NCBI GenBank assembly: GCA_013298895.1
Contig: JAAFJM010000015.1
Span: 7,811-71,810 of the forward strand
Direction of reading: 5' to 3'
From: Bacteroidota bacterium
GTDB taxonomy: Bacteria > Bacteroidota > Bacteroidia > UKL13-3
DNA: 64,000 nt
Of this stretch, positions 12,687 through 36,585 are shown piece after piece. The notes under the pieces are model-generated. The model had not been told where the DNA came from. It saw only the letters and a list, made by a program, of their open reading frames with translations, and did not search any database. How positions within the stretch are numbered: the stretch's first letter is position 1; every line of letters begins with the position of its first letter. The position numbers and the translations under genes are program-made.

Positions 12687-13514
12687 ATGAATCATATTCC
12701 AACCTTTAACTTTCGAAATATCGGTCGTAAAGAAAAGTTAGTAGATGTATTACCATGGGATTATTCTAATTTTTACCAAACTGAAAAAGTACATTGCCAC
12801 GATTACCATGAATTATTTGTAATTACAAGTGGTTCAGGAGTTCATCAAATAGATGGAGTAGAATATGCTATTCAATCCAATTCATTTCATATAGTTCCTA
12901 ATTTTTTCTCTCATAAATTTCAGCGCGAGCAAGGAACTATAGGTTTTACCATTGCCATTCAAAGTATTTTTATAGAACAGCTCTGTAATTTTGATAAAGT
13001 ATCAAATTATATAGCACTTTTTGAAAAAGAACACCTAATTGACCTTGGTTCAATTGATTTTAATAGCTTTCATTTTTTTGTGAATGAAATTCAAAACCAA
13101 GGTATAAACGATGCTTATATGCAAAATATTTGCGCAGCCATTTTACTCAAAATTATTGCGTTCATAAAGACAGATTCAGTTATTGAAAATAACTTTTCGA
13201 GTTTAGTTAGAAAAACTTTATTGCGCAATTACAAAAAGAGGTTATCGAATGAACAGTATGCCGATATGTTCAGCATGACGGCTATTAGCTTTAATTTGAA
13301 GGTTAAAAAAGCAACAGGTAAAACGATGATACAAATGCAAAATGAACTGCTTATATCAAACATAAAAAGGTTACTGTTCAATACCGATGCTAATTTAAAA
13401 GAAATTGCCTTCGATTTTGGTTTTAGTGATTATGCCCACTTTTCAAATTTTTTCAAAAAACATACTGGCAGTTCGCCCATGAATTTTAAAAAAGAAATCC
13501 AAAACATACAATAA
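12687..13514 (+). CDS. AraC-family transcriptional regulator (cupin-like N-terminal domain + C-terminal AraC HTH)
   Basis: The C-terminal HTH region has the AraC pattern FNLKVKKATGKTMIQMQNELLISNIKRLLFNTDANLKEIAFDFGFSDYAHFSNFFKKHTG. It lies directly upstream of the haem-motif operon. Confidence 0.7.
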   Translation: MNHIPTFNFRNIGRKEKLVDVLPWDYSNFYQTEKVHCHDYHELFVITSGSGVHQIDGVEYAIQSNSFHIVPNFFSHKFQREQGTIGFTIAIQSIFIEQLCNFDKVSNYIALFEKEHLIDLGSIDFNSFHFFVNEIQNQGINDAYMQNICAAILLKIIAFIKTDSVIENNFSSLVRKTLLRNYKKRLSNEQYADMFSMTAISFNLKVKKATGKTMIQMQNELLISNIKRLLFNTDANLKEIAFDFGFSDYAHFSNFFKKHTGSSPMNFKKEIQNIQ

Positions 13515-13579
13515 TTGAATAAGAATTGACAACTAATTTATTTTGGGTATCATTAGTTTTGTTTAAAAATAAAACAATT

Positions 13580-14410
13580 ATGAATTATACAAAACTAGTT
13601 ACTTTAAGTATTTTATTACTTTTTATTTGTGTTTGGAGTTTTGAAACTCACTCTATGTCAGGTGGGGCTTTAGAAGTTACTGGATCAACCCCAGGAGAAA
13701 ACTGCACTGGATGTCATCAAGGTATAGCCAATACTGATAGTAAAGGTGGAATTGCCATAGCCATAGCTGGTAATCCAACTTATTATGAGCCTGGTAAAAC
13801 ATACGATATGAGTGTTACCATTAATTACCCCACAAGAACAAGATTTGGTTTTGGGTTGAATATTAGAAAAAAAGGAAATGTATGGCAACCAATTGGAAGT
13901 TTGACAGCAGAAAATAATTCTGGGGTTTCTGCTCGCGGTACTTTTGCAACACATGAGTTAAAAGGTATAGATGCTGCTAATTCCAAAACTTGGATATTTA
14001 AGTGGACCGCACCACAAACATTAGATACATTTATATTTTATACAAGTGGTATTGCTGCTAATAACGATAAAGATGCTACTGGAGATATTACTTACACCAC
14101 AAGCAAAACAATATTTCCTTCAATAACCACAAGTGATAAAAGTATAAAGCCTTTATTATTGAAAGGTATTTATCCTAATCCAGCGCAAAATGAAATTGAA
14201 GTTGAAATGGAAGTAAGTTCACCTGATTTTTTTGAAATATCATTACTTGATATAAATGGCAGTTTAAAAGAAACGCTACTCCCTAAAACGCTGCTATCGG
14301 GAAATCAACAGCTACAATTTAAATTTACAAATGAGTACCCTAAAGGAATTTATTTCTTAAAGGTGTTTTCAAAAAATCATAATAGTTTTCAAAAAATAAT
14401 TATTTTGTAA
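13580..14410 (+). CDS. Secreted Reeler/DOMON-like domain protein with an N-terminal CXXCH motif and a T9SS C-terminal sorting domain
   Basis: Start trimmed to MNYTKLVTLSILLLFICVWSF (signal peptide). CTGCH sits right after the signal. The Reeler-like pattern is G.P...C..CH...YYEPGKTYDMSVTI...TRFGFGLNI...WIFKWTAP. The C-terminus (GIYPNPAQNEIEVEM...GIYFLKVFS...KIIIL) is a type-A T9SS CTD. Confidence 0.55.
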   Translation: MNYTKLVTLSILLLFICVWSFETHSMSGGALEVTGSTPGENCTGCHQGIANTDSKGGIAIAIAGNPTYYEPGKTYDMSVTINYPTRTRFGFGLNIRKKGNVWQPIGSLTAENNSGVSARGTFATHELKGIDAANSKTWIFKWTAPQTLDTFIFYTSGIAANNDKDATGDITYTTSKTIFPSITTSDKSIKPLLLKGIYPNPAQNEIEVEMEVSSPDFFEISLLDINGSLKETLLPKTLLSGNQQLQFKFTNEYPKGIYFLKVFSKNHNSFQKIIIL

Positions 14411-14482
14411 TAAAATGGATGTTTTTTTTATTATTTACTAAATAAAATTATAGATTTGGAAAAGGATAGAAAAACATATTGA

Positions 14483-14959
14483 ATGAAAAAAACAAAATTA
14501 ATTGTTTGCTTATCGACTATATTTAGCTTGTTAGTTATTGGTTGTTCCCATTACGATGAACTTCAAAAAAATAGCAAAGAAAGTAAGGCTAATGATGATG
14601 AAAGCCATAATACAGGACAAGATTGTATGAGTTGTCACAATAACTCTTCAAATGAAGCTTCAAGTGAAGGATGGTGGAACGTAGCTGGCTCAGTATATTC
14701 TGGCAATTCACCTGCGAATAATGTAACAGTTGAACTTTGGAGTGAGCCTAATGGCGCAGGTTTTAAAATTTTAACTTTAACATCAGATACAAAAGGAAAT
14801 TTTTATACCAATAAAATTATCAACTTCAATGGTGGATGCTATCCAGTGGTTATTAGTGGTTCAAAACGAAAGAATATGATTTCTAAATTCATGGGCGGAA
14901 TGAGTTGTTCTAATTCCAATTGCCATGGTGGTATAATAGATAAAATAAACTTCAATTAA
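14483..14959 (+). CDS. Small lipoprotein with a CXXCH motif (putative haem-binding)
   Basis: Lipoprotein signal MKKTKLIVCLSTIFSLLVIGCS. It has CMSCH plus a second Cys-His cluster, CSNSNCHGG, near the C-terminus. Confidence 0.5.
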   Translation: MKKTKLIVCLSTIFSLLVIGCSHYDELQKNSKESKANDDESHNTGQDCMSCHNNSSNEASSEGWWNVAGSVYSGNSPANNVTVELWSEPNGAGFKILTLTSDTKGNFYTNKIINFNGGCYPVVISGSKRKNMISKFMGGMSCSNSNCHGGIIDKINFN

Positions 14960-14964
14960 ATTAA

Positions 14965-15318
14965 ATGAAAAAAGTACTTTACTCAACATTACTCTTTGGC
15001 TTTATTGTTTTAACAGGCTGTTATTACGATAAAGAAGATAAATTGTATCCAAACTCAACAAACAATACAGATTGCAATGCTGTTTTAACTTATGATACAG
15101 GTATAAAAACAATTATTGATGCAAATTGCGCCTCTTCGGGTTGTCATAATTCTGGAGGTACTTCACCTGATTTATCTAACTATAGTTTAGTAAAAGCCAG
15201 TGCAACAAAAATTACACTAAGAGCCATAACGCAAAAAAACATGCCAGCTCCTTCTGGAATGTCTTCATGTAATATAACAAAATTAGATAATTGGATAAAA
15301 GCAGGAATGCCACAATAA
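14965..15318 (+). CDS. Small lipoprotein with a PSCyt1-like (Planctomycete-cytochrome-c-like) domain and a CX4CH motif
   Basis: Lipoprotein signal ...FIVLTGCY. IKTIIDANCASSGCH...NMPAPSGMSSCNITKLDNWIKAGMP matches the PSCyt1 pattern I recall (I.PIl...C..CH...MP....L.....I..WI..GA), but the spacing is C-x4-CH. Confidence 0.5.
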   Translation: MKKVLYSTLLFGFIVLTGCYYDKEDKLYPNSTNNTDCNAVLTYDTGIKTIIDANCASSGCHNSGGTSPDLSNYSLVKASATKITLRAITQKNMPAPSGMSSCNITKLDNWIKAGMPQ

Positions 15319-15326
15319 GTAAGAAA

Positions 15327-16235
15327 ATGAAAAAAAATATACTTTTTATAACCATGCTTTTAATGGTAAATTTTGCTTGGGCTCAGGATGATTTATTAGA
15401 CATGTTAAAAGATGAAAATACAAAATCAAACCCTGTATTAGCAACCTTTAAAGGAACAAGAATTATTACAGGTCAAAGCAACGAAAATATTTCTAAGAAA
15501 CACTTAAACTTCTTGATTCTGCACCGTTTTGGTGAATTAAAAGACGATGCATGGTATTATAGTCTTTTAGGAATTGATGCAGCTACAGTTCGTTTGGCAT
15601 TTGATTATGGGGTTACAGACAAATTAATGATTGGTGTAGGCCGCAGTTCTGTTTCTAAAATTTATGACTTCAATGTAAAATACAAACTTTTACAACAAAC
15701 AACTGGAGGTAAAAGGAATTCACCATTAGCAATTTCATATTATGGAAACATGGGTCTTAATACAACCACTTTCTCTGATTTAACTAGAAACAACTTTTTT
15801 ACATCCCGTTTAAATTTCTGTAATCAATTAATTTTGGCGCGTAAATTTAATGATAAAGTTTCAATACAAATTACACCAACAATGGTACACAGAAATTTAG
15901 TAGCTAAAACAAGTGATCCTAATTCTGTTTTTGCATTAGGGTTGGGTGGTTCATTTAAAATTACAAGAAGCACAAGGTTTAATATTGAGTATTATCCTCG
16001 TTTAAATGGCAGAGATGAATTAGCTTCAAATGGTAAAACTTTTAATGATTATTTAGCCATAGGTTTTGATATAGAAACAGGAGGACACGTATTTCAGTTA
16101 ATGTTTAGCAATTCTACATACATGTATGAACAAGGTTTTGTGGCTCAAACTACTGGTAGTTGGAGTGATTTAGCAATACGTTTAGGTTTTAACCTTTCAC
16201 GTACATTCTCATTCGATAATGAAGCCAAACATTAA
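15327..16235 (+). CDS. DUF5777-like outer-membrane beta-barrel protein
   Basis: Start trimmed to MKKNILFITMLLMVNFAWAQ (signal peptide). It has alternating amphipathic beta-strands and the HRFG motif I recall as typical of DUF5777. Family assignment is from memory. Confidence 0.5.
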   Translation: MKKNILFITMLLMVNFAWAQDDLLDMLKDENTKSNPVLATFKGTRIITGQSNENISKKHLNFLILHRFGELKDDAWYYSLLGIDAATVRLAFDYGVTDKLMIGVGRSSVSKIYDFNVKYKLLQQTTGGKRNSPLAISYYGNMGLNTTTFSDLTRNNFFTSRLNFCNQLILARKFNDKVSIQITPTMVHRNLVAKTSDPNSVFALGLGGSFKITRSTRFNIEYYPRLNGRDELASNGKTFNDYLAIGFDIETGGHVFQLMFSNSTYMYEQGFVAQTTGSWSDLAIRLGFNLSRTFSFDNEAKH

Positions 16236-16286
16236 TAACTATAACCAATTGGCACTGTTATTGAAATAAAATTAATAAATAATAAA

Positions 16287-16964
16287 ATGAAAAAAATTAC
16301 CACCATTCTAACGTTTAGCAGCTTACTAATTTTTGGTATGTGTAAACATGAAACTACCACAATTATAAATGGAGGTAATGGATTAACTGATACTACAAAA
16401 ATAAATGATAATCCCAAAAATGATTCAGTTTGTTTTAACACCCAAATTTTGCCACTTATTACTGCAAGTTGTGCGCAAGTTGGATGTCATGACCCAAGTA
16501 GTAGAGTTGAAGGTTTAATTTTAAATTCATACTCAGGAATAATGAATATGGGAACAAAAGATTTACTAAAATATATTAAATTAACATCAGGTAAAATGAT
16601 GCCACCACCTCCACAACCAAGGTTAGATCAAGTAAATATTGACCTCATTCAGCGTTGGGTTAATGAGGGTGCAAAAAATACAATTTGTAATATTACAAGC
16701 TGCGATACTTTAAATGTAAAATACACCAGTCATATTGCTCCAATTATGAATACATATTGCAAAGGCTGTCATAATTCAAGTAATTTAGGAGGAGGAGTAA
16801 ATTTAGATAATTATGCTGCTGTTAAAACTAGCACATTAACAGGGAAAATAATATGTACAATTACAGCCAACGGTTGTGCAATTATGCCAAAAGGTGGTCC
16901 TGCATTAAGTAATTGTAATGTACGTAAAATTAAAATTTGGGCTTCGGCTAATTGCCCTCAATAA
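16287..16964 (+). CDS. Lipoprotein with two tandem PSCyt1-like domains (CX4CH and CXXCH)
   Basis: Lipobox LLIFGMC. Domain 1 is FNTQILPLITASCAQVGCHDPS...MMPPPPQPRLDQVNIDLIQRWVNEGA. Domain 2 is IAPIMNTYCKGCHNSS...IMPKGGPALSNCNVRKIKIWASANCP. Confidence 0.55.
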   Translation: MKKITTILTFSSLLIFGMCKHETTTIINGGNGLTDTTKINDNPKNDSVCFNTQILPLITASCAQVGCHDPSSRVEGLILNSYSGIMNMGTKDLLKYIKLTSGKMMPPPPQPRLDQVNIDLIQRWVNEGAKNTICNITSCDTLNVKYTSHIAPIMNTYCKGCHNSSNLGGGVNLDNYAAVKTSTLTGKIICTITANGCAIMPKGGPALSNCNVRKIKIWASANCPQ

Positions 16965-16985
16965 TTAAAACTAAATAGTAAATAT

Positions 16986-17540
16986 ATGAAAAAATTAATT
17001 TTAACCATAAGCGCAGTTTCCTTAGTTGCATTTGGAAACATAAAAGCTCAAACTTTATATAAAGCAACAAATGCTGAGGTAAGTTTTTATTCAAAAACTC
17101 CAATGGAGGATATTGATGGAAAATCAACTACAGCTACTGCTTTAATTAATCCAGAAAAAAAGGACCTTGCCTTTGTCATTCAAAATGTTTCATTTCAATT
17201 TCCAAACAAATTGATGCAAGAACATTTTAATGAAAAATACATGGAAAGTGAAAAATACCCACTGAGCCAATTCAGAGGAACTGTTCAAGAAAACATTGAT
17301 CTAAAAGTAAATGGCGAATACAAAGTAACGGTTAAAGGCAAACTTACCATTCACGGTGTTGAACAAGAAAGGACAATTTCTGGTATTATTACCGTAAGCG
17401 AAGGTAAATTAGAATTAACCAGTAATTTTAAGGTTAAAAATGCTGACCATAAAATAGAAATACCTAAGTTGGTAGTAGCCAAAATTGCGGAGGAATTAGA
17501 TGTTCAAGTGAAAGCTACTTTGCTTCCAAAAGTAAAATAG
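16986..17540 (+). CDS. YceI family protein
   Basis: Signal peptide plus the YceI-like pattern YKATNAEVSFYSKTPMEDIDGKS...FVIQNVSFQFPNKLMQEHFNEKYMESEKYPLSQFRG. It is the last gene of the operon. Confidence 0.65.
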   Translation: MKKLILTISAVSLVAFGNIKAQTLYKATNAEVSFYSKTPMEDIDGKSTTATALINPEKKDLAFVIQNVSFQFPNKLMQEHFNEKYMESEKYPLSQFRGTVQENIDLKVNGEYKVTVKGKLTIHGVEQERTISGIITVSEGKLELTSNFKVKNADHKIEIPKLVVAKIAEELDVQVKATLLPKVK

Positions 17541-17562
17541 ATTTTTATGAATAATATTATTT

Positions 17563-17598
17563 AAAGGCTGTCTTCAAAAGAGACAGCCTTTATTTTTT
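17563..17598 (+). terminator. Rho-independent terminator closing the 13580..17540 operon
   Basis: Stem AAAGGCTGTCT / AGACAGCCTTT followed by ATTTTTTAA. Confidence 0.7.
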
Positions 17599-17651
17599 AA
17601 TAATAATTTACATTTTTGAATCAAAATAAATTCATAACCTTGCCTTCCAAT

Positions 17652-18983
17652 ATGAAATCAAAATTATTTTTATTTATTTTCTTTACTTTATTAATTAATA
17701 AGGTGATTCATGCTCAAACGGAGCAACAGATTTTTACTGAAGAAGGAAAAAAAATAATATCATTATTTGTTAATAGAAACTATGATAGTCTTACTTTATG
17801 TTTTAACGACAAACAAAGATTGTATAATAGCCCAACCGCTATTGCTTCCAATTACGAGCCTTTGATTGAAAAATATGGAAATATTCAAACGGTTAAATTT
17901 GCAGGATTTAAAGGTAATTATGAGCAGATAACAGTTCAATTTGTTTGTAATACAGCGTATAATATTGGTTTACTTGTTGAGTTAATTTTTAACAATATAA
18001 ATAAAAAAATCATTTATTATAAATTCACCGAAACTTATAAAATATATGCTATTCCCGAATATGTAAATGCAGAGTTATTTACCGAAAATACTATAAATTT
18101 TCACTCAGATAGCACTATGCCATTAACTGGATTTTTAACTTTGCCTGTTATCAAAGAAAAAGTACCATTAATTATAATAATTCCAGATGCTGGTCCAACC
18201 GATGCTGATGGAGTTTATAATTCAAAACCATATAAAGATATTGCTTATGGACTTTCGAGCTATGGTTTTGCTACATTTAGATATAATAAACGAAGCATTA
18301 ATTATGGGTTTAACCTTAACCAAGACAAAGTAAATAATAAAGTATTTACTCCTAAAGAGGATGTTATTGACGATTTGTTGTCGGGCATAGAAGCAATAAA
18401 AGGTAATCCAAACATTGATACTACAAAAATTTATTTACTAGGACATGGGGAAGGGGCATATTTGGCTCCATACATAGCAAGCAACTACAAAAATATTTGT
18501 GGCATAATAATGATTAATGCAAATGCAAATCATCCTTTAGAAATGATGATAGAACAACATAAATATTTAGGCAAAATTTTACCTCATAAAAAAGAGCATT
18601 TAGATGAAGATGATTTAAAAGCCAAAAAAGTATTAAAAGGGAATTTTGATTCAAAAACTCATTATGCTGAACTTCCATTTGATGTGCCTGCTAGTTATTG
18701 GCTTTGGATTAATAATTATAAACAAGTTAAAACAACAAAAAAATTATCAATCCCTATTTTTATTATTCAAGGAGAGCGCAATTACCAGGTTGATAAAGCA
18801 AACTTTTATGCTTGGAAAAAAAAGCTCAAAAGAAACAAAAACGTATCTTTTAAAACCTATGAAAATTTAAACCACATAATGCATGAAGGAGTTGGAGAAT
18901 CCACCTATAGCGAATATGGTATGATGGTTCATATTCCTTTTTTTGTAATTGATGACCTACAAAAGTGGCTCAAAGTAAATTAA
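17652..18983 (+). CDS. alpha/beta-hydrolase-fold protein (dienelactone hydrolase / S9-like) with a Ser-to-Gly nucleophile elbow (GHGEG)
   Basis: Start trimmed to MKSKLFLFIFFTLLINKVIHAQ (signal peptide). It has the hydrolase-fold landmarks IIIIPDAGPTDADG, LLGHGEGAYLAPYIA, IFIIQGERNYQV and NLNHIMHEG. Confidence 0.5.
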   Translation: MKSKLFLFIFFTLLINKVIHAQTEQQIFTEEGKKIISLFVNRNYDSLTLCFNDKQRLYNSPTAIASNYEPLIEKYGNIQTVKFAGFKGNYEQITVQFVCNTAYNIGLLVELIFNNINKKIIYYKFTETYKIYAIPEYVNAELFTENTINFHSDSTMPLTGFLTLPVIKEKVPLIIIIPDAGPTDADGVYNSKPYKDIAYGLSSYGFATFRYNKRSINYGFNLNQDKVNNKVFTPKEDVIDDLLSGIEAIKGNPNIDTTKIYLLGHGEGAYLAPYIASNYKNICGIIMINANANHPLEMMIEQHKYLGKILPHKKEHLDEDDLKAKKVLKGNFDSKTHYAELPFDVPASYWLWINNYKQVKTTKKLSIPIFIIQGERNYQVDKANFYAWKKKLKRNKNVSFKTYENLNHIMHEGVGESTYSEYGMMVHIPFFVIDDLQKWLKVN

Positions 18984-33282: not shown

Positions 33283-34992
33283 ATGGCACAAATTAACCGA
33301 AAGCAGTTTTTTCAAAACTTGGCTTCTGAAGCCTTAACCGAAAAAGAGTTACCCGTTTATCCTTACAAGGATCCTTCAAATACTGAAGTTCCTACTAGCT
33401 TAAGGAAAACCAGCATAGGTATTAGCCCTTATCAAGGTGCATGGACCGAAACTGAAATAAAGCATTTGTGCCGTAGAACTTTATTTGGTGTATCGAAGGC
33501 CGATATTGATTTTTTTAAAACTAAAACCATGGCCCAATCTGTGGATGCCATTTTAAACATATCAACCACCGACCCTGCGCCACCAGTTAATCATTACAGC
33601 GCCAATGCAAGTTTTCCAGATGCCGATGTGCCTTTTGGTGATACTTGGGTAAATGCAAATGAAAATCCATTGCTTAGTGCAGCCCGCAGAAACTCATTTA
33701 AAGCTTGGTGGATGGGCTTAATGATAAATCAAGACCGAACCATCAAAGAAAAAATGACTCTTTTTTGGCACAATCATTTCGCTACAGAAAGCACTGTAAT
33801 TCAACTAGCTAGATTTACTTACGACCATCATAAAATGTTACGCCAAAACTGTTTGGGTAATTTTAAAACCTTAACTCGTTTGGTAGCTACCGATTGTGCC
33901 ATGTTGGTATATTTAAATGGCGAAAAAAATACTAAAACTGCTCCTGATGAAAACTTTGGACGTGAGCTACAAGAACTATTTACAATAGGAAAAGATTTAG
34001 CAAATCATTATACTGAAGATGATGTAAAAGCTGCCGCCAAAGTAATGACTGGCTGGCGGAATAATAGAGTTGGTTTTACATCGTATTTTGATTCAACTAA
34101 ACACGATACCAGCAATAAACAGTTTTCATCGTTTTACAATAATGCGGTAATTACAGGAAAAACTGGTTCTGGTGGAGCCACCGAGGTAGACGATTTAATT
34201 ACCATGATTTTTAATCATGACGAAGTAGCAAAATACATTTGCCGTAAAATTTACCGCTTTTTTGTTTATTATATAATTGACGAAAGTGTTGAAACAAATG
34301 TTATTGCACCTTTAGCAACAGTTTTTAGAAACAGTGGCTATAACATAAAAACAGTAATGGATACTTTGCTAAAAAGTGAACATTTTTACGATGCATTAAA
34401 CATGGGTTGTGTAATAAAACCACCAACCGACCATTTAGCTGGAATTGCTAGAACTTTTAATTTGCAATTTCCAAGTGCTAGCAATGTAACTCAAACCTAT
34501 GCTCATTTAGGTTATTTTCAACAAATAGGATTGGCTTTTGGACAAGATATTGGCGATGCTCCTAATGTGGCTGGTTGGCCAGCCTATTGGCAATCACCTC
34601 AGTTTTATGAGCTATGGATAAACTCCGATTCACTTCCAAAACGCAATCAAGTTTGCGATGGACTAATTTATACAGGTTTTAATCGCCAAGGATTTAAGTT
34701 AATCCTTGATCCAATAGCATTTGTTGTTCAATTTTCAACACCAGAAGATCCGAATGCATTAATTAACCAAACAGTAAGTTTACTTTTTGCCATTGATGTT
34801 TCAACTACTAGTAAAATACAACTTAAAACTGCCTTTTTACTTTCGGGCCAAGCTAGCGACTATTATTGGACTGATGCTTGGATTGCCTATATACAAGCAC
34901 CAACTAATACTGCTAAAAAACAAGCTGTTTATAGCAGGTTACAAGGATTATTTAAATATTTAATGGGTTTAGCCGAGTTTCAATTAATTTAA
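33283..34992 (+). CDS. DUF1800 family protein
   Basis: A 569-aa protein with the characteristic order and size, paired with DUF1501 downstream. Confidence 0.55.
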   Translation: MAQINRKQFFQNLASEALTEKELPVYPYKDPSNTEVPTSLRKTSIGISPYQGAWTETEIKHLCRRTLFGVSKADIDFFKTKTMAQSVDAILNISTTDPAPPVNHYSANASFPDADVPFGDTWVNANENPLLSAARRNSFKAWWMGLMINQDRTIKEKMTLFWHNHFATESTVIQLARFTYDHHKMLRQNCLGNFKTLTRLVATDCAMLVYLNGEKNTKTAPDENFGRELQELFTIGKDLANHYTEDDVKAAAKVMTGWRNNRVGFTSYFDSTKHDTSNKQFSSFYNNAVITGKTGSGGATEVDDLITMIFNHDEVAKYICRKIYRFFVYYIIDESVETNVIAPLATVFRNSGYNIKTVMDTLLKSEHFYDALNMGCVIKPPTDHLAGIARTFNLQFPSASNVTQTYAHLGYFQQIGLAFGQDIGDAPNVAGWPAYWQSPQFYELWINSDSLPKRNQVCDGLIYTGFNRQGFKLILDPIAFVVQFSTPEDPNALINQTVSLLFAIDVSTTSKIQLKTAFLLSGQASDYYWTDAWIAYIQAPTNTAKKQAVYSRLQGLFKYLMGLAEFQLI

Positions 34993-35004
34993 AATGCCAT
35001 TGTT

Positions 35005-36585
35005 ATGAAAAGAAGAGATTTTTTACAAAAAGCAATTACTGCAAGTGCATTGCCATTATTTATTAATGGTTTCCCAATTCAAACTTTAGCCGACAACCCA
35101 ATTGTACAATATTTGGGTAAAGCAGGAGCGGAAGATCATGTATTGGTTTTAATTCAATTAAATGGTGGTAACGATGGATTAAATACTGTTATTCCAATTG
35201 ACCAATACAGCAAATTGGTTTTGGCAAGGCAAAATATTTTAATACAACAAAATAAAATATTGGCTTTAACAGGAACGCAAGCTACTGGCTTACACCCAAG
35301 CCTGAGTGAAGTGCGCAACCTTTACGATAATGGCTTGGTAAATATTGTACAAAGTGTTGGTTATCCAGACCCCAATTTCTCACATTTTAGAGCAACTGAT
35401 ATTTGGCTAACAGGAAGCGATAGCAACGTAAATGAAGAAACTGGTTGGATGGGAAGATATTTAGAAACCAAATTTGATGGGTTTCCAACCAATTACCCAA
35501 ATACCAATTATCCTGATCCACCTGCCATTCAAATTGGAGCTTTGGTTTCGCCAGCATTGCAAGGCCACCAAGCCAGTTTAGGCATGTCAATTACCGACCC
35601 AACTTCGTTTTATCAATTTGTAAACGGAACGGTTGATACTGCACCAAATACTCCGGCTGGCCACGAATTAACTTATGTAAGACTAGTAGCTCAACAAACA
35701 CAACAATACAGTGGAACCATAAAAGCCGCAGCCGATAAAGCCACCAATTTATCAACTTTATATCCAACTGCTGGAACCAATAGCCTTGCCGACCAATTAA
35801 AAATTGTGGCACAATTAATTGCCGGAGGCTTAAAAACCCAAGTATATATGGTTAGTTTGGGTGGATTTGATACACATGCTGGCCAAACCGATTCAAGTGC
35901 AACTGAAAATGGCACACATGCCAACTTAATGCAAAAAATATCGCAAGCGGTAAATGCATTTCAAGATGATTTGAAAAAATTAGCCATTGATGAACGTGTA
36001 TTAGGAATGACTTTTTCGGAATTTGGACGTAGAATTAAATCGAATGACAGTTTAGGCACCGACCATGGAGCAGCTGCACCACTATTTATATTTGGTAAAA
36101 ATGTAAAACCAGGAATTACTGGTAATAATCCAATTATTCCGAGTACGGTAACTGCCAACGATAATGTACCAATGCAAGTTGATTTCAGATCGGTTTACGC
36201 CAGTATTTTAAAGTATTGGTTTAATGTAAGCGATAGCGAATTAAGCCCAATGTTGCTTAATAAAACATTTCCATTGTTAGATATTATAGCAAACGGCAGT
36301 TCAAGCGTAACTAATGCAATAGAAGCTAAAATTGGTATTTTAGAAAATTATCCTAATCCTGCTACCACCCAAACTACCATTAAGTTCTCGTGCAGTGGTG
36401 GTTATGTAAAAATACGTTTGTATGATAACATAGGTAGAGAAATACTAACCATAGCTGAAAATGATTATAGCAAAGGAACACATGAAGTAGTTTTAAACAC
36501 CGAAAGCTTAAGAAATGGTACTTATTATTATCAAGTACAACAAGGTGCCTCGCAATTAATGAAAGCGCTAGTAGTAGCTAAGTAA
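35005..36585 (+). CDS. DUF1501 (sulfatase/alkaline-phosphatase superfamily) protein with a twin-arginine signal and a T9SS C-terminal sorting domain
   Basis: MKRRDFLQKAITASALPLF is a Tat motif (RRxFL). It has the DUF1501 landmarks GGFDTHAGQ and GTDHGAA. The C-terminal ~85 aa (ENYPNPATTQTTIKF...GTYYYQVQ...KALVVAK) is a type-A T9SS CTD. Confidence 0.6.
   Translation: MKRRDFLQKAITASALPLFINGFPIQTLADNPIVQYLGKAGAEDHVLVLIQLNGGNDGLNTVIPIDQYSKLVLARQNILIQQNKILALTGTQATGLHPSLSEVRNLYDNGLVNIVQSVGYPDPNFSHFRATDIWLTGSDSNVNEETGWMGRYLETKFDGFPTNYPNTNYPDPPAIQIGALVSPALQGHQASLGMSITDPTSFYQFVNGTVDTAPNTPAGHELTYVRLVAQQTQQYSGTIKAAADKATNLSTLYPTAGTNSLADQLKIVAQLIAGGLKTQVYMVSLGGFDTHAGQTDSSATENGTHANLMQKISQAVNAFQDDLKKLAIDERVLGMTFSEFGRRIKSNDSLGTDHGAAAPLFIFGKNVKPGITGNNPIIPSTVTANDNVPMQVDFRSVYASILKYWFNVSDSELSPMLLNKTFPLLDIIANGSSSVTNAIEAKIGILENYPNPATTQTTIKFSCSGGYVKIRLYDNIGREILTIAENDYSKGTHEVVLNTESLRNGTYYYQVQQGASQLMKALVVAK

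Follow-up and report, generated by a model that had tools for sequence, protein, structure and literature searches.

A 64,000-nucleotide (nt) stretch of contig JAAFJM010000015.1 (assembly GCA_013298895.1), called the window below, comes from an uncultured freshwater Bacteroidia bacterium and carries a genuine cluster of seven genes, in which the gene for an AraC-type regulator (G0) precedes six genes for predicted exported proteins (G1–G6). Motifs typical of c-type haem attachment occur in a secreted protein (G1) and in three lipoproteins (G2, G3, and G5); G4 is a β-barrel of the DUF5777 family and G6 a member of the YceI family. We propose, with moderate confidence, that the cluster is a Bacteroidota-specific electron-transfer module of the cell envelope, in which a YceI lipid carrier would work together with c-haems at the outer membrane and the cell surface. 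The conserved unit consists of DUF5777, YceI, and either a cytochrome c or a Rieske protein, and its anchor is the barrel gene G4; AraC, G1, and G2 are lineage-specific additions. Where we go beyond family membership and gene linkage, the functional steps are those that we infer.

Conservation of the barrel, YceI, and redox protein genes

DUF5777 matches more than 7000 protein clusters and occurs in at least ~600 species-level genomes. A scan of one genome per GTDB species gave at least 600 DUF5777 matches, 596 of them confirmed, and the best 80 were analyzed with their 10-kb flanks. Searching for exact copies of the window's DUF5777 protein, and of a shorter form 100% identical to it, retrieved no contig, and relatives were used in its place. 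The survey comprises 81 DUF5777 loci from different GTDB species, in which all open reading frames (ORFs) were translated and searched with the window proteins, and the neighbors were clustered. The carriers analyzed belong to several Bacteroidota orders and include cultured members of Runella, Dyadobacter, Emticicia, Algoriphagus, Adhaeribacter, Flectobacillus, Flammeovirga, and Catalinimonas. Adjacency was counted in the 63 of the 81 loci having at least 3 kb on each side, for neighbors on the same strand and next to the barrel gene. By this count, YceI stands beside the barrel in 53 of the 63 loci, a cytochrome c of the G5/G3 type in 52, a membrane-anchored OB-fold protein (PF12869) in 36, and a Rieske [2Fe-2S] lipoprotein in 12, all from Cytophagales. 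At least one redox protein is found there in 61 of the 63.

The order of the genes differs between lineages. Nearer relatives have G5-G2-G3-barrel-YceI, many Chitinophagales, Saprospiraceae, and Bacteroidales have cytochrome-cytochrome-OB-YceI-barrel, and Cytophagales have Rieske-barrel-YceI, in some cases followed by a cytochrome. Because of these rearrangements, the core linkage is more than inherited synteny. Conservation within the closest clade is uninformative on its own, since there the whole region dapB-lepB-AraC-...-esterase is syntenic. The remaining genes are more narrowly distributed: G2 occurs in 7 of the 81 loci, and proteins like G1, with haem motif and type IX secretion system (T9SS) signal, in four divergent loci, where their genes precede or follow the barrel gene. 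An earlier annotation of the same DNA (the original prediction) had postulated a coherent module, and the DUF5777/YceI/redox core is indeed co-conserved across Bacteroidota, whereas AraC, G1, and G2 are confined to particular lineages and G5 is exchangeable in sister lineages. Lack of co-conservation, named in that prediction as grounds for rejecting it, does not apply to the core.

Several genes accompany the core without belonging to it in the window. The OB-fold protein (tRNA_anti-like, E 1e-17 to 1e-22) is ~145 residues long with one N-terminal membrane helix, and its gene lies between the cytochromes and YceI (L013 8920-9414, L015 8971-9417, L017 8928-9347, and 45 more loci); three cysteines fall at matching positions in the representatives read, and the window's clade lacks the protein. 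The place of the upstream cytochromes is taken in Cytophagales by a small Rieske lipoprotein with a signal resembling that of the twin-arginine translocation (Tat) pathway, ~500 bp upstream of the barrel gene (L014, L016, L018, L024, L033, L038, L044, L045, L052, L064, L071, L072, and L085). In the closest sister lineages, genes for YkuD-type L,D-transpeptidases occupy the position that G5 has in the window (L007 10903-11415, L089 9655-10167, and L090 9660-10169). One of the two, G5 or the transpeptidase, was swapped in; a possible task of the transpeptidase is the anchoring of the barrel or the lipoproteins to peptidoglycan.

Regulators vary outside the window's lineage and include a LytS kinase with a LytTR protein (13–15 loci), extracytoplasmic function (ECF) sigma factors, and sigma-54-type activators. 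The LytS sensor kinase has a signal peptide, two-component-regulator propeller repeats, and a Y_Y_Y domain, and is encoded together with the LytTR response regulator in or beside the module (L008, L017, L019, L027, L032, L039, L040, L046, and L048 among others), often with a second YceI gene (and a cytochrome gene) on its far side. This pairing suggests a dedicated periplasmic signal.

The cluster in the window and its products

The window contains 56 long ORFs, whose translations were scanned for CxxCH and Cx4CH and searched with Pfam and NCBIfam hidden Markov models (HMMs). All seven genes of the cluster are on the forward strand, and G1–G6 span 13580-17540 (Table 1). The original prediction had described six same-strand genes 6–73 bp apart with AraC upstream, which agrees with the computed gaps of 72, 5, 8, 51, and 21 nt between G1 and G6 and of 65 nt between AraC and G1. 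The strong terminator that it had placed at the end of the cluster is borne out by an RNA fold of -20.1 kcal/mol (z -5.07), with none of 200 shuffles equally stable. As also anticipated there, four of the six products carry CxxCH or Cx4CH motifs, six motifs in all (G1, G2, G3, and G5). Since just one other ORF among the 56 has such a motif, a doubtful ORF of 100 residues, this clustering is far beyond chance. All six products are predicted to be exported: three as lipoproteins, with lipoboxes read from the sequence (LVIGC in G2, VLTGC in G3, IFGMC in G5), two through signal-peptidase-I signals (G4 and G6, each followed directly by Gln), and one as T9SS cargo. The GC content of the region is uniform at 29–34%, and with so even a base composition there is no sign of a foreign island.

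Table 1. Features of the cluster, in window coordinates.
Feature	Coordinates	Strand	Description
G0, AraC/XylS-type regulator	12687..13514	+	N-terminal cupin-like ligand domain, C-terminal helix-turn-helix
-7 box, possible Bacteroidota type (TAGTTTTG)	13554..13561	+	From pattern search; 19 nt 5' of G1 start codon
G1, secreted haem/T9SS protein (predicted)	13580..14410	+	N-terminal CTGCH, Reeler-like β-sandwich, C-terminal sorting domain
Second -7-like box (TAGATTTG)	14451-14458	+	From pattern search; 5' of G2
G2, lipoprotein, 158 aa	14483..14959	+	CMSCH and CSNSNCH flanking a β-rich middle domain
G3, monohaem cytochrome-c-like lipoprotein, 117 aa	14965..15318	+	CASSGCH ... MP
G4, DUF5777 outer-membrane protein	15327..16235	+	Predicted 12-stranded β-barrel; ~40-residue N-terminal extension
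G5, two-domain lipoprotein, 225 aa	16287..16964	+	PSCyt1-type domains: CAQVGCH...MMPP and CKGCH...MP
G6, secreted YceI-family lipocalin-like protein	16986..17540	+	Signal peptide ...IKA, cleavage before Q
Intrinsic terminator	17562..17592	+	13-bp GC-containing stem, then T-run; starts 21 nt after G6

The clearest cytochrome of the cluster is G5, which scores 23.5 bits against a cutoff of 22 for PSCyt1 (domain 2) and 26.9 against 27, just under the cutoff, for Cytochrome_CBB3. Most of its homologues have PF07635 together with PF13442 and are named "c-type cytochrome domain-containing protein". In G5 and G3, both features of class I cytochromes c are found, namely the CxxCH motif (CKGCH in G5; Cx4CH elsewhere) and a distal Met-Pro ligand. 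The motifs are well conserved: C...CH and MP in at least 95% of 30 G3 homologues, the distal MP of G5 domain 2 in at least 85%, and the haem motif in 79 of 82 homologues of G5, all 30 of G3, and all 7 of G2 (116 of 119 overall). In the G3 family, CxxCH (15) and Cx4CH (14) alternate at the same position among homologues. The His after the second Cys and the distal Met-Pro are jointly conserved, which is the signature of c-type haem ligation. Judging by its sequence, G3 is a one-domain relative of the PSCyt1/class I type represented by G5. The original prediction had assigned all three lipoproteins to the PSCyt1 pattern; this holds for G5, which passes the PSCyt1 threshold, and for G3 with its class I pattern, but not for G2, a member of a different family. 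Absence of cytochrome HMM hits, likewise given there as grounds for rejection, does not apply in view of the G5 score and the retained motifs.

In Planctomycetes, the PSCyt1 domain heads large DUF1549/DUF1553 proteins. G5 domain 2 shares with PSCyt1 (PF07635) the CxxCH ... MP pattern as well as the score above threshold, whereas the proteins of the window are small stand-alone lipoproteins, and G5 domain 1 and G3 use Cx4CH. G2 constitutes a small two-motif lipoprotein family of its own, distinct from the PSCyt1/class I type: across 8 sequences, neither of the haem motifs varies, nor do M132 and the CSH start. A truncated G1-type domain was considered for G2 and rejected, because the profile–profile alignment spans just the 14-residue haem motif. 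A role of the lipoproteins in haem uptake, as hemophores, was rejected too, because the motifs are of the covalent-attachment type and a TonB-dependent receptor is not recurrent nearby. 

The mature lipoproteins begin with CSHYDELQ (G2), CYYDKEDK (G3), and CKHE (G5), the corresponding family patterns being CYYD[KN]EE in 21 of 25 G3-type sequences and C[KR]H[DE]P in the G5 type. The export signal of Bacteroidota lipoproteins comprises, in its minimal form, a polar or basic residue followed by two acidic ones (PMC5080379). The acidic tails that follow the cysteine in G3 and G2 are conserved and resemble this experimentally defined surface-export signal (PMC5080379). Because of this acidic character of their mature N-termini, G3 and G2 are possibly on the surface; the sequences thus suggest surface exposure for these two and a periplasmic orientation for G5. 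The families of G2 (CSH, invariant in 8 sequences) and of G5 (C[KR]H[DE]) share a conserved His, located at position +3 after the lipidated Cys.

G1 belongs to the bacterial "choice-of-anchor V" domain family (NF041895, 98.8 bits against a cutoff of 42). An N-terminal signal peptide and a T9SS type-A tail (Por_Secre_tail, PF18962/TIGR04183, E 1.5e-11) identify it as T9SS cargo, in accordance with the original prediction. C42, C45, H46, and the WTAP motif are invariant in 15 homologues and H125 is nearly so, from which G1 is predicted to be a cell-surface c-type haem protein. Good circumstantial evidence that this domain family really bears c-type haem comes from a homologue, P0130 (28% identical), whose gene has that of a hexahaem protein on one side and, on the other, a fused ResB-CcsA gene for cytochrome c maturation. 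The region around P0130 (L087 6182-13210) appears to be a T9SS-linked cytochrome cluster of its own within Bacteroidia: the homologue is flanked by a secreted protein of 561 aa with five CxxCH and one Cx4CH, the fused ResB-CcsA product has 1066 aa, and the next gene encodes a 255-aa protein with a possible OB-fold. A lipoprotein nature was rejected for G1, because the Cys of its signal region is not conserved in homologues.

The description of G1 as Reeler-like in the original prediction is correct as regards the fold, a Reelin-N β-sandwich, but the Pfam Reeler HMM (PF02014) finds no match in G1 at E ≤ 1 and gives faint precomputed matches on the distant homologues P0130 and P0131 only. G1 differs from the Reeler/Reelin-N domains of F-spondin (3coo/2zot), with which it shares 17% identity, and from eukaryotic Reeler domains in general, which lack CxxCH; NCBI places it in choice-of-anchor V. 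The eukaryotic FRRS1/SDR2 architecture is Reeler-DOMON-cytochrome b561, and cytochrome f is a β-sandwich c-cytochrome.

The barrel G4 matches PF19089 (DUF5777) with E 1.4e-89, and its AlphaFold model has 12 strands at a predicted local distance difference test (pLDDT) score of 73.6; both the HMM match and the transmembrane β-barrel agree with the DUF5777-like outer-membrane barrel of the original prediction. Among 85 DUF5777 sequences, conservation reaches at least 97% at 22 positions, with H66, H254, and the ETGGHVFQ turn among them, and the most conserved residues gather at this turn and at the predicted periplasmic rim. A bis-His b-haem inside the barrel finds no support, because just two or three His residues are near-invariant and their strand positions put them at different levels.

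Assignment of the last gene to YceI is confirmed for G6 by PF04264 (51.3 bits against a cutoff of 23.7, E 2e-13) together with its secretion signal; a search with G6 returned 2040 representative clusters at E ≤ 1e-3. YceI proteins bind isoprenoid quinones, the Neisseria homologue carrying ubiquinone-8 (PMC9113575), and ubiquinone-8 is likewise bound by the YceI-like X158 domain of Saccharophagus. Fatty-acid derivatives and antibiotics are bound as well (PMC9113575). By analogy, G6 is predicted to be a periplasmic carrier of isoprenoid quinone or lipid. Sequence searches of the PDB gave nothing significant for G1, G5, or the DUF5777 profile, and no match at E ≤ 0.01 for G6.

G0 has the C-terminal double helix-turn-helix and the N-terminal ligand domain of the AraC/XylS family (HTH_18 64.3 bits, E 1.3e-17; HTH_AraC 27.1 bits; AraC_binding 21.1 bits, at the cutoff). 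The AraC gene keeps its position in the relatives L007, L089, and L090, which represent the window's own clade, and is absent from the other 80 surveyed loci. It is a candidate regulator of the module in the window's lineage only. Scans for promoter consensus sequences, of the sigma-70 type and the Bacteroidota -7 box, did no better than chance in the window, and because the -7 motif is not enriched (115 found versus 129 expected), the two boxes in Table 1 are merely compatible with a promoter and no evidence for one. No Ccs genes for cytochrome c maturation occur in the 64-kb window.

Other genes of the window deserve brief mention. After the terminator follows an EstD-like α/β-hydrolase gene (17616-18983, +; NF041096, E 5e-71, below cutoff), which is syntenic in the sister lineages L089 and L090 and probably unrelated to the module. 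Farther downstream (33283-36585, +) lie a DUF1800 gene (E 1e-88) and, after it, a DUF1501 gene, the product of which has a twin-arginine-like start (MKRRDFLQKAITASALPLF) and a T9SS type-A sorting domain at its end (E 3e-10). For a single protein to combine a Tat signal with a T9SS tail is unusual, as T9SS cargo normally uses Sec.

Proposed function and competing explanations

In the model that we favor, the ligand of soluble periplasmic G6 would be an isoprenoid quinone, in oxidized or quinol form, or some other redox-active lipid. Judging from the YceI proteins of Neisseria, Cellvibrio, and Saccharophagus, which bind ubiquinone-8, menaquinone would be expected in a Bacteroidota YceI. Single electrons would pass between the YceI-bound lipid and the His/Met-type c-haems of the outer-membrane lipoproteins, or the Rieske center in their place, with G5 probably facing the periplasm and G3 and G2 perhaps located at the surface. 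The G4 barrel would be the outer-membrane part that gives the chain access to the outer leaflet or the surface; its task may be to dock YceI while gating the lipid carrier, or else to seat a lipoprotein. In the window's lineage, T9SS-anchored G1 would extend the chain, so that the path would run from the periplasm through the outer membrane to the surface, under the control of the AraC-type regulator. Redox potentials would direct electrons from quinol to haem c and from there to an acceptor of higher potential, situated at the outer membrane or beyond it, for which oxidized lipids or oxygen radicals, metal ions, or a redox enzyme are candidates. Rieske centers are classic quinol oxidants, and their substitution for cytochromes therefore fits a YceI-bound quinol.

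Several observations weigh against this model. G2 has no Pfam family above threshold, cytochrome HMMs included, and G3 matches Cytochrome_CBB3 weakly and below threshold (E 0.007, 17.1 bits against a cutoff of 27). Three of the six motifs are of the Cx4CH form (CSNSNCH in G2, CASSGCH in G3, CAQVGCH in G5), which the Bacteroidota maturation system II would have to process. The acidic tails of G3 and G2 are off the optimal C-X-K-(D/E)2 position. A 12-strand barrel is too narrow for a cytochrome, and no cofactor site is seen in it. YceI is absent from 10 of the 63 loci, and in the closest relatives the L,D-transpeptidase gene sits in the slot of G5, between DUF5777 and YceI. Fusions that would tie the partners together are lacking as well, with no cytochrome–barrel or YceI–cytochrome protein among 51 G5 homologues and no YceI–cytochrome fusion among the best 150 YceI representatives. 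Finally, no paper naming the DUF5777 family was found in the literature searched.

As to physiology, the most plausible role is a specific version of the redox reading, that of an outer-membrane antioxidant, which we advance tentatively and regard as rather unlikely: YceI would capture oxidized lipids, peroxyl radicals, or oxidized quinone, the c-haems would supply the quenching electrons, and the barrel would provide access to outer-leaflet lipids. In Burkholderia, the YceI protein BcnA and the cytochrome b561 LcoA limit lipid peroxidation, and the pair is widely conserved or fused (PMC9113575). Algae-attached Zobellia induces YceI genes, which its authors took as an oxidative-stress response, and peroxyl radicals should be thermodynamically good acceptors for haem c. 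However, cytochrome b561 is found in no surveyed locus, no stress regulator is consistently linked to the module (AraC, LytS/LytTR, ECF sigma factors, and the sigma-54 type vary), and lipid repair has no need of a T9SS-anchored surface haem protein.

A bolder version is an extracellular route. YceI would take menaquinol from the inner membrane and ferry it to the barrel, through which the lipid carrier would enter or cross the outer membrane, and the surface-exposed monohaem and dihaem lipoproteins and the T9SS-anchored Reeler-fold cytochrome would hand the electrons to an external acceptor. We regard this version as unlikely.

A role in metal redox handling is decidedly unlikely. Here, the haem and Rieske proteins would reduce or oxidize a metal ion such as Cu(I)/Cu(II) or Fe(III), with the barrel as the metal channel, for the purpose of resistance or uptake. 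In Runella and Dyadobacter, the module with its barrel and YceI adjoins a CusA/CzcA-family metal pump of the resistance-nodulation-division (RND) type (TIGR00914, 1180 bits), fused to an outer-membrane factor, and an adaptor; the pump gene is found upstream of the module in one genus but downstream of it in the other, separated from it by an ECF sigma gene. The near-invariant His residues of the barrel (H66, H254, and H188) would also speak for metal. Yet this RND linkage occurs in just 5–6 of the 81 loci, no metal gene lies near the module in the window, and neither a TonB-dependent receptor nor a multicopper oxidase nor a metallochaperone recurs in the 81 neighborhoods. Moreover, PcoB takes only rank 23 among the fold matches of the barrel, and YceI has no known metal role.

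Electron transfer might also be absent altogether, which we consider very unlikely. The Cys-x-x-Cys-His proteins would then bind metal, a disulfide, or non-covalent haem (for scavenging), or be structural, and the cluster would be a transport unit for lipids or hydrophobic compounds, formed by the barrel and YceI with accessory lipoproteins. This would account for the subthreshold cytochrome scores of G2 and G3 and for the unusual Cx4CH spacing in half of the motifs; it would also be in keeping with the binding of fatty-acid derivatives and antibiotics by YceI proteins (PMC9113575) and with the barrel fold, which resembles the small-molecule channels KdgM, NanC, and COG4313. On the other hand, His after the second Cys and the distal Met-Pro are conserved together, G5 and its homologues pass cytochrome HMMs, a Rieske iron–sulfur protein occupies the same gene position in Cytophagales, and ResB-CcsA adjoins a G1 homologue. 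Chance proximity of secreted-protein genes without shared function, carried along by local synteny as in the closest clade, is scarcely credible given a core association that survives changed order and context across Bacteroidota orders, the tight gaps (5–72 nt) with one closing terminator, and the concentration of haem motifs in the cluster.

Relation to known systems and significance

The families concerned, DUF5777, YceI, PSCyt1, choice-of-anchor V, and the T9SS tail, are all catalogued. For the barrel, the Bacteroidota cytochrome lipoproteins, and the haem-Reeler protein, we found no recorded function, and the literature searched contained no study of the DUF5777–YceI–cytochrome module, as the original prediction had supposed in stating that no function was described.

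Porin–cytochrome conduits (MtrCAB, Geobacter Pcc, and fused Cyc2) consist of an outer-membrane barrel encoded with periplasmic and surface haem lipoproteins, and their barrels have 16–26 strands that enclose a multihaem cytochrome or, in Cyc2, a fused monohaem one. The cluster resembles them in combining a barrel with haem lipoproteins, and the idea of moving electrons across the outer membrane is shared. Unlike them, it has a barrel of 12 strands rather than a large one (at least 16–20 strands) with multihaem partners, one or two haem motifs per cytochrome, and a YceI protein.

The precedent cited in the original prediction, E. coli yceI with the cytochrome b561 gene yceJ, is documented (PMC9113575). 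In the same way, BcnA works with the cytochrome b561 LcoA, and YceI–b561 fusions occur in α-proteobacteria (PMC9113575). Common to these pairs and the cluster are a secreted YceI-family protein genetically coupled to a haem protein and the proposed logic of a bound quinone or lipid swapping electrons with an envelope cytochrome. The partner in those pairs is, however, an inner-membrane di-haem b561, whereas here it is an outer-membrane c-haem or Rieske lipoprotein; an outer-membrane barrel and, in the window's lineage, a T9SS surface protein are added, and the arrangement is restricted to Bacteroidota. No adjacent or fused cytochrome b561 was found in the window cluster or among the recurrent neighbor families of the 81 loci.

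A further parallel is provided by Cellvibrio japonicus Cbp2D, a secreted electron donor in which a YceI-like domain is joined to two c-type cytochrome domains (PMC8981238). Cbp2D/Cbp2E (X158 with X183/X132; PMC8981238) and the cluster both pair a quinone-binding YceI-like domain with small monohaem cytochrome c domains outside the cytoplasm. The Cbp2 proteins are fused, secreted, equipped with a carbohydrate-binding module, and act on lytic polysaccharide monooxygenases (LPMOs), whereas the proteins considered here are encoded by separate genes, are lipid- or T9SS-anchored, and have no such module; LPMO or glycan genes are not recurrent near DUF5777 in the 81 loci. The module belongs neither to the YceI–b561 pairs nor to the porin–cytochrome conduits, given that it has no b561, a small barrel, one or two haems, and nothing fused.

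The linkage offers a testable function for three poorly understood families, namely DUF5777, the Bacteroidota PSCyt1-type lipoproteins, and choice-of-anchor V, and it carries the emerging YceI–cytochrome connection into a further phylum and to the outer membrane. Because cultured carriers exist (Runella, Dyadobacter, Emticicia, Algoriphagus, Adhaeribacter, and Flectobacillus), the hypothesis is directly testable. Real surface haem proteins would give Bacteroidota a dedicated means of bringing redox chemistry to the cell surface, with a bearing on how freshwater and soil communities tolerate oxidative stress, cycle metals, and possibly oxidize polymers. A real surface route would be a new type of electron path across the outer membrane. 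Should the extracellular version hold, it would be the first extracellular electron-transfer route described for Bacteroidota, working on a principle unlike that of multihaem "wires", with G1 as the first demonstrated case of a c-type cytochrome among T9SS cargo.

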